A stretch of 32,000 nt of DNA from Candidatus Cloacimonadales bacterium (GCA_963667035.1 OY762964.1:2786097-2818096), one strand, 5' to 3'. Counted from the first letter of the stretch, positions 12,500-15,276 are shown. A program made the numbers and translations. Notes: a model not told the origin generated them from the letters alone.

Positions 12500-13879
12500 A
12501 TGATAAGGAAAACTGTTATTTACTTGTTGATTATCTCTGTGCTCTGTTGTGTCGTTGAGTTATATTCAGAAACAACAAGCTCTTTAGCAGAGTTAAAAGC
12601 TGAAACTGAACTTGCAAAACGCATTGAAGACCTAGTGAAACCATTTACTGAAAAAGTTATTGTTGGAGTTGATCTTGATTTAAGATATAATCTATTTGAG
12701 ACTAACACTTCAGATTTCAAGTTCGATCCCAATATGAGCCTACCCGGTTTACCGGTAGGTAAAACAGATAATAGAATAGTTGAGAATGATCTTGAAGATG
12801 TAGTACCAACTGAAATATTAAGAAAGAAAATTAGTATTAAAGTTCCATTAGATACTTCCAAAGAAGTAATCGAATTTCTCAATCAAGAAATACATAATAT
12901 TATTACAATAGATGAGAATAAAGGGGATATATTGCAGATAACCCCTGAATCTAATCTAACCAAGTATATCCGTTCAAAGAATAACAGGTTACAGACTTAC
13001 TTTTTTCTCACCTTAATTGCAGTTATGATTTTAATGCTGAATAATATACGTAGCGGTATGAGAATAATTGCCAAGTCAATGAGAAAAATCAAAATCACTA
13101 ACCTTGAAGTTCTAAATAAATCAAAAACACCGGAGATAATTAATAATAGTACTTCTGAACAAACTCATCCCAGAATTCCTCTTGAACCTATAAAAGTAAA
13201 AGTTCTTCAAGATGAAGAAGAAGATTTGATGCCAACGAGATTCGATTTCTTAGAAGATCTTTCGGATGCTAACTTGTTAGAAGTTTTAAGAGAAGAGAAT
13301 CCCGAGGATATAGCATTTATTGTTTCTCAAATCTCTCCAGAAAAAGCAGGAGCTGTTTTCCAGAATCTAAAAGAGAATAAAGAACAAGTAATAAATGCAA
13401 TGTTAGAAAATCAATCAAAGCTGAAGCTAGACCTTAAAATCCTAGTTGTTAATTTATATAATAAGTATCTGGAAATTATGGAGAAAGAAGCAATTCAGTT
13501 AGAGGGTGTAGGTCTACTCGCAAAAATAATAAACAGTTCGGATTATGAGAGTTCTAACATTCTATATGAATCCATAAATAATCTTGATAAAGATAAGGCT
13601 AAAGAGATTGCGAAAAAGATATTCTTATTGGATGATGTCTTATTGCTGTCTAATATTCAAATTGAACAGATTTCTCTTGAATTTACTCATCTAGAGTTAG
13701 TTAAATTCTTAGCCTGTGTGAATACAAGAATAAAGAACAAATTCTTCTCTCAACTTTCGGAAAGAGCAACAATGATTTTTAAAGAGGACATAGAATCTCT
13801 AGGTAAGCTTTCGGAAGGAGAAAAGAGAGTTATATTGAATCACTCATTGAGAAAAATTCGTAATATTCTAAATTTCTAA
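12500..13879 (+). CDS. Membrane-anchored FliF(RBM3)-like / FliG(middle+C-terminal)-like fusion protein (putative rotor subunit)
   Basis: The track starts it at TTG 12449. I prefer ATG 12500, preceded by GGGAGG. Topology: TM1 (TVIYLLIISVLCCVV), periplasmic aa ~25-155, TM2 (TYFFLTLIAVMILML) followed by a basic cluster. Periplasmic motifs ELAKRIEDLVKPFTEKVIVGVDLDLRYN and KKISIKVPLDTSKEVIEFLNQEIHNIITIDENKGDILQITP parallel FliF RBM3 (E.RI...IE.il.P.vG...V.a.V.a.LDf and RLSVAVVV...l..ie.l...a.G....RGD.l.V). The cytoplasmic region (aa ~247-459) aligns by eye with FliG: FDFLEDLSDANLLEVLREENPEDIAFIVSQISPEKAGAVFQNL; EGVGLLAKIIN; KIFLLDDVLLLSNIQIEQI; FFSQLSERATMIFKEDIESLG. Confidence 0.7.
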   Translation: MIRKTVIYLLIISVLCCVVELYSETTSSLAELKAETELAKRIEDLVKPFTEKVIVGVDLDLRYNLFETNTSDFKFDPNMSLPGLPVGKTDNRIVENDLEDVVPTEILRKKISIKVPLDTSKEVIEFLNQEIHNIITIDENKGDILQITPESNLTKYIRSKNNRLQTYFFLTLIAVMILMLNNIRSGMRIIAKSMRKIKITNLEVLNKSKTPEIINNSTSEQTHPRIPLEPIKVKVLQDEEEDLMPTRFDFLEDLSDANLLEVLREENPEDIAFIVSQISPEKAGAVFQNLKENKEQVINAMLENQSKLKLDLKILVVNLYNKYLEIMEKEAIQLEGVGLLAKIINSSDYESSNILYESINNLDKDKAKEIAKKIFLLDDVLLLSNIQIEQISLEFTHLELVKFLACVNTRIKNKFFSQLSERATMIFKEDIESLGKLSEGEKRVILNHSLRKIRNILNF

Positions 13880-13889
13880 AAGGTTTTTT

Positions 13890-14627
13890 ATGAAAATAAG
13901 TACACTATTAGGTATAGTTTTAAGTATAGTGATTATTGTTTTTGCCATTAATGCAAAAGGTAGTTTAGTAGAATACTTTGATCCAATAGCTTTGATGGTA
14001 ACATTAGGGGGAACTGTTTCAGCTCTTTTGGCAACTTACTCGTTTTCTAGCCTTAAAGATGCAATAGAATCGTTGAAAGTAGTTTATTTTACACCGCCCA
14101 TACCGCATGACGATATGGTCGAGATAATGATTGGAGTGAGTAAGGATTCTCGTTCATTAAGTTTTATGGAAATTCAAAGCTATGAAGAAGTGCAAAATAT
14201 CCCATTTCTTAAAACAACTATTACAATGTTAGCTGATAATCTTCCCAAAGACAAAATTACTGATTTTCTTGAGTCTGAAAGTAGATCAATACTTAGAAGA
14301 AGAATTCGTTCAGCTAAGATATTCGGAGTTGCTGGAAATCTGTCACCAATGTTTGGTATGATTGGTACAGTAATTGGACTAATAGCTATGCTTGGCAATA
14401 TGAGTGATCCTTCTGTTGTCCCTAGAGCTATGAGTCTTGCTCTCGTTACAACTCTATATGGATTAATTCTATCTGTGATAATTTTTAGACCAATAGCAGG
14501 TAAGATATCTTCAGGAGCAGAATATGACTATATCAACAGAGAAATCATTATTCAAGGTATCTCAGGAATTATTGAAAAACGCAACTCGGAGATAATTAAG
14601 ACTGAGTTGACTAAAATTTATGCATAA
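13890..14627 (+). CDS. MotA/PomA-type stator channel subunit (MotA/TolQ/ExbB family, 4-TM flagellar-stator-like architecture)
   Basis: 245 aa with 2 N-terminal TMs and a ~100-aa cytoplasmic loop. The conserved core is GNLSPMFGMIGTVIGLIAMLGNMSDPSVVPRAMSLALVTTLYGLILSVIIFRPIAGKI, with both signature prolines present. It starts 10 nt after the upstream stop. Confidence 0.85.
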   Translation: MKISTLLGIVLSIVIIVFAINAKGSLVEYFDPIALMVTLGGTVSALLATYSFSSLKDAIESLKVVYFTPPIPHDDMVEIMIGVSKDSRSLSFMEIQSYEEVQNIPFLKTTITMLADNLPKDKITDFLESESRSILRRRIRSAKIFGVAGNLSPMFGMIGTVIGLIAMLGNMSDPSVVPRAMSLALVTTLYGLILSVIIFRPIAGKISSGAEYDYINREIIIQGISGIIEKRNSEIIKTELTKIYA

Positions 14628-15276
14628 TAAAGACAACAATAAAGTTAATCAAGTTTTGTCTGATATCGAGGATAGCCTCATAAATACTCCAGACAATGAT
14701 TTCTCAGGATTTTATTCAGCTTTAGTTCCTTATGCTGATATGATGACTTTACTACTCATTTTCTTCGTTTTCTATTTTGTCATAGGAGATACAGAAACAG
14801 GGTGGAAGGCTATTGCCGAGATACAAAAGAAGAAACTTAATAACAATATCCAATCAGAATCCATAGCAGAAACTGAGATGTATGAAGGTGATATTAGCGA
14901 AAAGGTAATATCAATACCGGGGAATATCCTCTTTGAATCTGGTGAGGCAAACCTTAGATGGTTGTCTCAAGATACACTTATTAAAATTGCTATGGATATA
15001 AAGAAGATCGTTAAAGACGATGATAGCTGGCAAATTCGTATAGAAGGACACACAGACAATGTTCCTATTGCCAATAATAAATATGCTTCAAACTGGGAGC
15101 TTTCTACAGCAAGAGCTTTGAGCATTGTGAAGTTTTTTATTAGAAATGGCTACTTTACTGCAGATCAACTACAGATTATGGGGTATGGAGAATTCAAACC
15201 TCTAGTACCAAATGATACAGAAGAGAATCGAAATAGAAACAGACGCGTTGAGATTAAAATCAGTCAGAAAAGATAG
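14620..15276 (+). CDS. MotB-type stator subunit with OmpA-like peptidoglycan-binding domain
   Basis: It overlaps the motA-like stop by 8 nt. The single TM, PYADMMTLLLIFFVFYF, carries the conserved channel Asp (D40, nt 14737..14739). OmpA-like domain: ILFESGEANL..IRIEGHTDNVPI..NWELSTARALSIVKFF..GYGEFKPLVPNDTEENRNRNRRVEIKI. Confidence 0.85.
   Translation: MHNKDNNKVNQVLSDIEDSLINTPDNDFSGFYSALVPYADMMTLLLIFFVFYFVIGDTETGWKAIAEIQKKKLNNNIQSESIAETEMYEGDISEKVISIPGNILFESGEANLRWLSQDTLIKIAMDIKKIVKDDDSWQIRIEGHTDNVPIANNKYASNWELSTARALSIVKFFIRNGYFTADQLQIMGYGEFKPLVPNDTEENRNRNRRVEIKISQKR

Follow-up and report, generated by a model that had tools for sequence, protein, structure and literature searches.

FliG-containing rotors, so far as we are aware, have all been flagellar ones, and students of flagellar evolution have long asked how the flagellar rotor and stator became coupled with a type III secretion core. 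The present analysis concerns a stretch of 32,000 nucleotides from a Candidatus Cloacimonadales bacterium (GCA_963667035.1 OY762964.1:2786097-2818096), here termed the ‘window’, and within it three adjacent genes. One encodes a fusion of the third ring-building motif (RBM3) of FliF with the middle (M) and C-terminal (C) domains of FliG, i.e., FliF(RBM3)-FliG(MC), and the other two encode a MotA/PomA-type and a MotB-type stator subunit. As read from the window and its homologous loci alone, these genes on balance probably represent a flagellum-derived, flagellum-independent rotor-stator module, one that would power a surface adhesin or envelope apparatus. That the output is specifically adhesin movement or surface motility is a narrower claim, possible but also somewhat doubtful. 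In the literature searched, including that on orphan stators and on FliF-FliG fusions, we found a FliG/MotAB module outside of flagella nowhere described. One paper remarks only that rotor proteins lacking filaments ‘could have an alternative function’ (PMC12199754).

The closest described system is the flagellar rotor. Shared with it are an RBM3 fold, FliG_M, a FliG_C carrying an Arg/Asp-Asp(Glu) torque helix, a stator A subunit of PomA/MotP type, and a MotB-type subunit with plug, channel Asp, and OmpA-like domain, and the torque-generating contact is presumably identical as well. In flagella, though, FliF and FliG are separate proteins, whereas the Cloacimonadales module supplies a single polypeptide, one which lacks RBM1 and RBM2, a full beta-collar, FliG_N, the FliM-binding EHPQR motif, and an equivalog-level score. 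The locus, too, is without FliM/FliN, export-gate, rod, hook, or filament genes, displaying instead adhesin, PorV-like/tetratricopeptide-repeat (TPR), and polysaccharide genes, and in this it contrasts with a canonical flagellar operon (L023; neighbourhood of the fliF, fliH, fliI, fliM/N type). The module is rated here as resembling the flagellar rotor-stator in its likely working but as failing membership in FliG, in FliF, and in the flagellum. It would be a system of a new kind, assembled from flagellar components already known.

Engineered FliF-FliG fusions (Salmonella; Vibrio 8z4d/8z4g) share with the module the covalent FliF-FliG link, 8z4d being matched by both halves of the Cloacimonadales fusion, and such engineered proteins are reported to assemble rings (PMC11481574, PMC6079021). 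Both these and certain natural full-length fusions (P0099, P0104) differ from the module in possessing a complete FliF (RBM1-3 plus collar) and in being flagellar. The natural ones, of 787 and 774 amino acids (aa), respectively, were seen among public metagenome proteins, are without FliG_N (Pfam), and group with canonical FliG in a tree of FliG_MC domains, apart from the module family. FliM-FliG and FliN-FliG fusions also occur among public metagenome proteins (Pfam; P0046, P0078, and P0147 in the same set).

With the gliding and type IX secretion system (T9SS) machinery of Bacteroidota (GldLM, SprB, SprF/PorP), the likeness is one of an inner-membrane ion motor tied to a giant adhesin bearing a type-B signal and to a PorP/PorV-family protein, and the Cloacimonadales host also belongs to the FCB (Fibrobacteres-Chlorobi-Bacteroidetes) group. 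The motor nevertheless consists of MotAB plus a FliG-type rotor rather than of GldL5M2 with its periplasm-spanning GldM, and the adhesin is of FG-GAP/Big_5 type rather than SprB. Neither gldK/L/M/N nor sprA is found in the locus or in the homologous loci retrieved. The Agl-Glt and Nfs systems of Myxococcus, and Tol-Pal, similarly involve a 5:2 stator-type motor that energises an envelope-spanning complex of TPR proteins and an outer-membrane barrel, with the Nfs spore-coat machine working with a Wza/Wzc-type polysaccharide pathway, but these have TolQR-type motors and TonB/TolA-like transducers, without FliG or RBM3.

A putative fused rotor subunit and its stator genes

The rotor gene lies in a reading frame spanning 12449-13879 (+), with the ATG at 12500, just 3' of a GGGAGGA Shine-Dalgarno sequence, yielding a product of 459 aa. 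That product consists, from N- to C-terminus, of a signal or transmembrane (TM) segment, a periplasmic domain of ~135 aa, a TM helix, a disordered linker, FliG_M, and FliG_C (Table 1). An original prediction, made from the DNA sequence, had described the cytoplasmic part as FliG middle and C-terminal domains minus the N-domain, and profile and structure searches bear this out. FliG_C (PF01706) scores 51.1 bits against a cut-off of 23.3, and FliG_M (PF14841) 30.8 bits against a cut-off of 25. Best sequence matches in the PDB, over residues ~248-440, are to FliG of Aquifex (3hjl, 1e-18), Thermotoga, Helicobacter, and Salmonella, with 1lkv also among the matches. A Foldseek search of the fusion model against the PDB likewise has FliG as its first 13 matches (E down to 4e-9). 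The generic MgtE_N helical repeat, considered as a possible sole identity for this part of the protein, reaches only 17.9 bits, i.e., below its cut-off, versus the 51 bits of FliG_C (Pfam).

No FliG_N match is found by Pfam in the fusion, the corresponding region being TM helix plus disordered linker. The FliG equivalog model TIGR00207 in turn aligns only at model positions 104-301 of 338 (75.7 bits versus a cut-off of 226.7), and because that alignment begins at position 104 the N-domain can be described as missing. The domain which docks FliG to FliF is gone, that is, as is the conserved motif for docking FliM. At the EHPQR position the window protein reads E-N-P-E, and across 34 aligned family members E is present in 27, the H position is variable, P is present in 15, the Q position is mostly E, and the Arg position is gapped; EHPQR thus is not conserved within the family.

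What is conserved is the torque helix. Among the same 34 members, R422 is present in 33, E429 in 30 (with D in three others), and D430 in 26 (with E in the remaining eight), these being the counterparts of E. coli FliG R281, D288, and D289. The charges are under strong purifying selection, which argues for a working contact with a stator.

The periplasmic part was predicted to carry an RBM3 fold in two half-motifs, and the two peptides quoted are present at residues 37-64 and 109-149. A 31-sequence profile of this domain has FliF as all four of its best PDB matches (best E=1.8e-4, over full length), its two halves aligning to Salmonella FliF 241-268 and 404-435, and Pfam's YscJ_FliF_C is matched by 4 of the 31 domains. 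By hhalign against a small FliF alignment, the second half gives E=5.8e-5, and the profile also matches natural full-length FliF-FliG fusions (1.6e-5). Structurally, FliF MS-ring RBM3/S-ring entries make up nearly all of Foldseek ranks 14-31, directly following FliG (E from 3.8e-3, probability 1.00, target TM-score ~0.5), with PrgK of the injectisome coming afterwards. The AlphaFold monomer model behind these searches, built upon 34 family sequences, has a mean predicted local distance difference test score (pLDDT) of 78, exceeding 90 over FliG_MC; a 4-sequence alignment gave a pLDDT of just 51. In the model the periplasmic domain displays helix 29-46, strand 54-62, a low-confidence insert, strand 105-116, helix 121-135, and strand 144-150. 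This alpha-beta-beta-alpha-beta order is the topology of a ring-building motif, and, with profile, fold, and topology tests all in agreement, assignment of the domain as a FliF RBM3-type ring-building motif is supported.

RBM1 and RBM2, as also had been suggested, are absent: There is no YscJ_FliF (PF01514) match in the fusion, and the periplasmic part amounts to only ~135 aa. At the position of the ~110-aa FliF beta-collar there is instead an insert of ~40 aa, of low-confidence structure, which contains the near-invariant motif S-L-P-G-L-P-V-[AGS]-[KR]-[ST]. The suggested 2-TM topology fares less well. Two hydrophobic segments do exist (hydropathy), with the second followed by a basic stretch (charge count), and residues ~26-164 consequently are placed in the periplasm and the FliG part in the cytoplasm. 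The first segment, however, resembles a cleavable signal peptide in most members of the family (family alignment), and the mature fusion therefore may possess only a single TM helix.

The two genes that follow are separated from the fusion gene by 10 nt and from one another by an overlap of 8 nt, and both are what they had been taken to be, i.e., PomA/MotA-type and MotB-type. The A subunit matches MotA_ExbB (84.5 bits, Pfam) along with, at full length, the NCBIfam models MotP (148 bits) and PomA (144 bits), its best NCBIfam score of 148 bits nonetheless falling below the equivalog cut-offs of 237-394. With Vibrio PomA (8brd) it aligns end to end (residues 1-240, E=1e-32). Channel prolines, the TT motif, and an equivalent of PomA R88 are conserved within the 245-aa A-subunit subfamily, with R88 in most members. 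The B subunit matches MotB_plug (29.8 bits) and OmpA (66.4 bits) by Pfam and MotD/MotB by NCBIfam (122-140 bits), and has a single TM at residues 31-60 (hydropathy), including Asp40 within ‘YADMMTLL’. This is the MotAB/PomAB architecture, that is, a 4-TM A subunit with conserved channel prolines and a large cytoplasmic domain between TM2 and TM3, and a B subunit with plug, Asp, and peptidoglycan-binding domain. The Zorya anti-phage system was also considered, but PADLOC gave no ZorA for either the MotA-like or the fusion protein, reporting only generic ZorB/MotB similarity.

How the three proteins might work together can be sketched by analogy. The fusion would reside in the inner membrane, its RBM3-type domain periplasmic and its FliG_MC cytoplasmic, and, as with FliF RBM3 rings and FliF-FliG fusion rings, it may assemble into a membrane ring with a ‘skirt’ of FliG_MC. 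The stator would be of PomA type, MotA5/MotB2, anchored to peptidoglycan via the OmpA domain of MotB and conducting H+ or Na+ by way of a channel containing the conserved Asp. Going by the conserved interface residues and the MotA5B2 cog-wheel model, this stator would push upon the Arg/Asp-Glu torque helix of FliG_C, thereby turning or straining the ring. As the fusion and its locus offer no FliG_N, no FliM-binding motif, no RBM1/2 for an export gate, and neither rod nor hook, the mechanical output would not be a flagellum.

A non-rotating arrangement is the foremost alternative. The fusion could act as a transducer or regulator, i.e., like TonB or TolA, a clutch, or a sensor, rather than as a free-turning ring, with a stator upon FliG_C passing along an ion-motive-force or load signal, whether to secretion gating, to Wzc kinase and polysaccharide output, or to surface mechanosensing. 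Other non-flagellar 5:2 motors (ExbBD, TolQR, AglRQS, GldLM) do act on elongated transducers, as is established (for a review, PMC9389320), and the ring state of the fusion is itself argued from analogy. Against this stand a periplasmic domain that is specifically the ring-building RBM3 of FliF, retention of FliG_M, which is a ring-packing domain, and a near invariance of what in flagella is the torque-helix triad of rotary drive. Overall we view a transducer as unlikely.

That the genes simply are a divergent part of a real flagellum, with the fusion replacing or supplementing FliF/FliG within a conventional or reduced motor, would accord with a stator that is of flagellar (PomA/MotP) type. 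The fusion nevertheless is without RBM1/RBM2 for an export gate, without FliG_N, and without a conserved EHPQR for FliM, and, together with the gene neighbourhoods, phylogeny, and gene frequencies considered below, this renders the flagellar explanation very improbable.

Family, conserved partners, and candidate outputs

Homologues were gathered by an exhaustive profile search over 1.84 billion representatives, word-index searches having under-sampled the family (4 close matches; 23 matches). The fusion family includes 37 proteins at E<=1e-30, and an RBM3-like N-domain is present in 59 of the best 155 matches, among them forms of 500-700 aa that are rich in Ala, Gly, Arg, and Pro. A composition of this sort is typical of high-GC organisms. 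The family spans at least ~55 clusters at 50% identity, with identity to the window protein falling to ~20% across the 34 aligned members, and in public records its members are named either ‘hypothetical protein’ or ‘flagellar motor switch protein FliG’. In a neighbour-joining tree of 148 FliG_MC domains, which is crude, unrooted, and without support values, all 58 family members fall to one side of a single branch, along with one outsider, and canonical FliG and the natural full-length FliF-FliG fusions fall to the other side. That canonical FliF and FliG are found across the tree from the module speaks also against its being part of a conventional flagellum.

A second natural fusion family was encountered as well, consisting of 552-aa proteins with YscJ_FliF_C (RBM3), a TM, FliG_M, and FliG_C, and having a canonical FliG C-terminus (P0092, also P0067). 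The gene for P0092 (L021:5738-7396, L022:5627-7285) adjoins genes for a sigma-54 activator, a 692-aa TPR protein, and a 172-aa MgtE_N-like protein, with neither motAB nor flagellar genes nearby in L021 or L022.

Homologous loci, examined to +/-10 kb, represent six deep lineages: L001-L011 (nine Cloacimonadales species), L014, L016, L018, L020, and L024. The fusion is accompanied by motA-motB in all six, by an adhesin (~1150-1560 aa) plus an outer-membrane partner in five, and by polysaccharide genes in three, gene orders being as given in Table 1. Flagellar structural or export genes are absent within +/-10 kb in all six, the flbD of L020 being the sole flagellar gene seen, and genes of T9SS-type adhesin and envelope kinds are found where flagellar ones otherwise might be expected. 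None of the latter, i.e., flagellar export, rod, hook, filament, or switch genes, is present among the ~20 genes of the 32-kb window either, as had been claimed of type III export, hook, and filament genes in the original prediction. Given that the same partners are kept despite gene-order shuffling, they can be viewed as a functional unit of five genes plus a facultative polysaccharide arm. The unit as first delimited (12500-15276), though containing the three genes as described, consequently is too small: The divergent stretch 6239-12374 belongs to it also and, in this clade, so too does the operon through to 20491.

In L020, where the family member is very divergent, flbD (1468-1683; PF06289, 88 bits) separates the fusion gene from motA. 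It can be counted towards a flagellar explanation, and it also hints at descent from an flbD-motA-motB operon. In combination with a PomA/MotP-type stator, FlbD in that one lineage suggests that the module descended from a flagellar motAB operon rather than being a pre-flagellar relic.

Descent from flagella raises in turn the prospect of a decaying remnant, one that is now functionless, and flagellar remnants indeed are known from non-motile lineages (PMC12199754). Reading frames, however, are intact, and at least 55 clusters share one architecture; functional residues hardly vary even where overall identity is ~20%; and operon junctions are tight, with synteny surviving the shuffling of gene order. 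By this pattern of conservation the remnant explanation, barely credible in our estimation, is effectively refuted.

Turning to what a working motor might act upon, synteny alone points to the PorV-like/TPR outer-membrane protein and the giant T9SS-type adhesin as recipients of the work, with movement, deployment, or tensioning of the adhesin as the possible result, and the SLPGLPV loop of the periplasmic insert is a possible contact for passing that work onward. By Pfam the 1553-aa window adhesin has FG-GAP at 118 bits, Big_5 at 60 bits, and CHU_C at 24.8 bits, the last falling short of a cut-off of 27 that the adhesin orthologue in L024 exceeds (29.2 bits). TIGR04131, for type-B sorting, scores 19.5 bits in the window adhesin and 19-23 bits across lineages, against a cut-off of 35. 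NCBIfam PorV_fam scores 32 bits in the 494-aa window protein and 56-60 bits in its L014 and L020 orthologues, against a cut-off of 90.

In Cloacimonadales, the co-transcribed Wzc/Wza/LCP (LytR/CpsA/Psr) pathway may additionally supply a slime or anchor glycan, with export coordinated with the motor. The window does possess the features of Wzx/Wzy-type export, i.e., a Wzz co-polymerase with bacterial tyrosine (BY) kinase, an outer-membrane polysaccharide export (OPX) protein, and MatE/Polysacc_synt. It could be argued from this that polysaccharide export instead is the primary output, with the motor extruding or spinning capsule or slime via Wzc/Wza and with the adhesin being incidental. Fusion, motA, and motB, after all, lead a seven-gene operon that continues with ExeA-like ATPase, Wzc, LCP, and Wza genes, the junctions of the four genes after motB being 8, -4, -1, and 7 nt. 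That seven-gene order is kept in nine species, and LCP is found with the module in L016 and L020 also, there along with phosphoglycosyl transferase. In L014, L018, and L024, by contrast, no polysaccharide genes are found beside the module, and L014 and L024 keep the adhesin and outer-membrane protein pair. Polysaccharide as primary output is, on this evidence, distinctly improbable, more so than a transducer.

The same loci bear upon a transducer. In its favour, Wzc, LCP, and phosphoglycosyl transferase genes are interleaved with those of the motor in L016, and in L018 the module is paired with a Tol-Pal-like YbgF TPR protein, but against signalling to polysaccharide output is that polysaccharide genes are missing from three of six lineages. 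As a matter of gene arrangement, the L016 interleaving extends to the stator itself, a gene for a 692-aa Bac_transf phosphoglycosyl transferase (12254-14332), i.e., for polysaccharide initiation, sitting between motA and motB.

A rotor-stator module driving an adhesin remains the preferred reading, but several observations weigh against it. RBM3 statistics individually are modest (E 1e-4 to 1e-5; Foldseek E 4e-3). Counterparts in the A subunit of the acidic PomA residues E96/E97 are shifted by 2-3 positions, variable, and out of register. For the window proteins, neither the T9SS type-B nor the PorV assignment reaches threshold, though both are consistent across lineages. Polysaccharide genes accompany the fusion in just three of the six deep lineages and hence have a non-core role. 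In L018, lastly, the sole partner of fusion, MotA, and MotB is a YbgF/BamD-like TPR protein, with no adhesin nearby. Taken together with the domain identities and the stator contact, the rotor-stator interpretation first put forward nonetheless is supported. More tentatively, the module may exemplify a class of rotary machine so far unrecognised, in which a FliF(RBM3)-FliG(MC) ring with its own MotAB, and no type III core, delivers torque across the periplasm to a PorV-like/TPR outer-membrane protein and a giant, T9SS-anchored FG-GAP adhesin.

If this is correct, then the flagellar rotor-stator pair would be a separable, autonomous functional unit, and the conserved three-protein module, i.e., a ring-building FliF domain with FliG_MC along with MotAB, would be a minimal natural system for torque generation. 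The linkage with adhesin and outer membrane suggests that the FCB group has a new means for powering its surface adhesins or motility, with Cloacimonadota and other uncultivated lineages then possessing an engine of flagellar origin that serves gliding or the moving of adhesins.

Flagellar gene frequencies and the bacterial host

The window derives from a single-contig genome (piMetPara1.Candidatus_Cloacimonadales_5.1) of 3,102,113 bp, 98.9% complete and assigned to clade 2, and sister chromosomes bearing the cassette are present in the same genome table (PMC13082233). Of 46 Cloacimonadota genomes surveyed earlier, only 5 had flagellar genes. Among the 179 clade-2 metagenome-assembled genomes (MAGs), motA was recorded in 73 (41%) and motB in 71 (40%), versus flhA in 30 (17%), fliF in 25 (14%), fliG in 29 (16%), and flagellin in 27 (15%), with the supplements supplying clade totals and no per-genome table (PMC13082233 Table S8). 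From motA at 73 and flhA at 30 it follows that at least ~43 clade-2 MAGs have MotAB but lack the flagellar core. That ~15% of clade-2 MAGs do have flagellar genes can be cited in support of a real flagellum, but motA being 2.4x commoner than flhA argues the opposite. Among the best 120 MotA matches, these being the best matches only, there is one MotA per cassette-bearing chromosome.

As a matter of annotation, KEGG-style pipelines assign the cassette genes to ‘flagellar assembly’ or ‘motility’ where the organisms probably are without flagella. KEGG-based statements to that effect on Cloacimonadota may in part reflect the rotor-stator cassette.

All complete chromosomes bearing the cassette have Tree-of-Life sample names that begin with ‘pi’ (piMetPara1, piMetSpee1, piTriSpec1, piPlaFron1). 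These names we presume to refer to anaerobic ciliates (Metopus, Trimyema, Plagiopyla). The host bacteria may then be ciliate-associated, which would fit with an adhesin-centred machine.

Features of the window

Table 1. Features of the rotor-stator locus in the window, followed by gene content of homologous loci.
Feature	Residues	Positions	Strand	Basis
Outer-membrane protein, 494 aa; N-terminal PorV/PorQ/PorP-like beta-barrel, C-terminal TPR repeats		6239..7723	-	TPR_2/TPR_11/TraF_2 (Pfam); PorV_fam
Secreted giant protein, putative surface adhesin, 1553 aa; FG-GAP beta-propeller, Big_5 Ig-like, CHU_C/T9SS type-B		7713..12374	-	Pfam, TIGR04131
Divergent intergenic region, 125 bp, between adhesin and rotor-stator operons; holds GGGAGGA		12375..12499	.	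Sequence
FliF(RBM3)-TM-FliG(MC) fusion, putative rotor subunit, 459 aa		12500..13879	+	Pfam, NCBIfam, PDB, AlphaFold, Foldseek
N-terminal hydrophobic segment, signal peptide or TM1	1-25	12500..12574	+	Hydropathy, family alignment
RBM3-like ring-building motif, periplasmic	29-150	12584..12949	+	AlphaFold2 (AF2) secondary structure; profile, Foldseek, hhalign matches to FliF
Insert between beta1 and beta2, at FliF beta-collar position	63-104	12686..12811	+	Column counts 26-29/34; low pLDDT as monomer
TM helix, then basic (cytoplasmic) stretch	165-186	12992..13057	+	Hydropathy, charge count; AF2 helix 162-198
FliG middle and C-terminal domains, pLDDT >90	248-459	13241..13876	+	Pfam, PDB sequence matches, Foldseek, conservation
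Torque helix with R422, E429, D430	421-434	13760..13801	+	Conservation across 34 members
MotA/PomA/MotP-type stator A subunit, 245 aa		13890..14627	+	MotA_ExbB, NCBIfam MotP/PomA, PDB PomA
MotB-type stator B subunit, 218 aa; plug, TM with Asp40, OmpA-like peptidoglycan-binding domain		14620..15276	+	MotB_plug, OmpA, NCBIfam MotD/MotB
ExeA-like AAA ATPase (PEP-CTERM-system type), 278 aa; same operon in this clade		15285..16121	+	AAA_22; TIGR03015 141 bits, sub-threshold
Polysaccharide co-polymerase (Wzz domain) fused to BY-type tyrosine autokinase, Wzc-like, 853 aa		16118..18679	+	Wzz, AAA_31; TIGR01007 112.9 bits (cut-off 108)
SLBB + LCP glycopolymer transferase, 360 aa		18679..19761	+	LytR_cpsA_psr 51.2 bits, SLBB
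Short Wza-type OPX protein, 240 aa		19769..20491	+	Poly_export 69 bits, SLBB_2; TIGR03027 80 bits, sub-threshold
L001-L011, nine Cloacimonadales species: collinear with window from outer-membrane TPR protein gene to Wza, ExeA-like ATPase included
L014 (Cloacimonadota): adhesin C-terminus, outer-membrane TPR protein, fusion, MotA, MotB, MscS
L016: adhesin, Wza, two response regulators, outer-membrane TPR protein, ExeA-like ATPase, co-polymerase, kinase, LCP, fusion, MotA, phosphoglycosyl transferase, MotB
L018: fusion, MotA, MotB, YbgF/BamD-like TPR protein
L020: fusion, FlbD, MotA, MotB, FG-GAP/CHU_C protein, PorV/PorP-like+TPR protein, LCP, WecA-type transferase
L024 (Ala/Gly/Arg/Pro-rich): tight five-gene operon of fusion, MotA, MotB, 1542-aa FG-GAP/Big_5/CHU_C protein, 491-aa TPR protein

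A scan for sigma-70 promoters and terminators did no better than with shuffled sequence, and Rfam and tRNA scans of the window gave no matches. Elsewhere in the window are genes which lie outside of the locus proper. Positions 28433-31999 (+), seemingly 4 kb free of open reading frames, in fact hold one frame of at least 1189 aa which runs past the window end, the product of which carries a signal peptide along with PPC, MAM, and HYDIN/VesB-like Ig domains and thus counts as a further secreted surface protein of large size. Towards the opposite end, 3-1541 (-) encodes a CHASE2 sensor fused to an adenylate/guanylate cyclase domain, this gene running past the left window edge, and 2014-5328 (-) encodes a 1104-aa protein whose sole match is DUF4901. 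A 558-aa DUF2207 membrane protein is encoded by 26037-27713 (-), and its gene is overlapped, by ~130 nt, by a radical-SAM gene (25148-26167) for which the TTG start probably is called too early.

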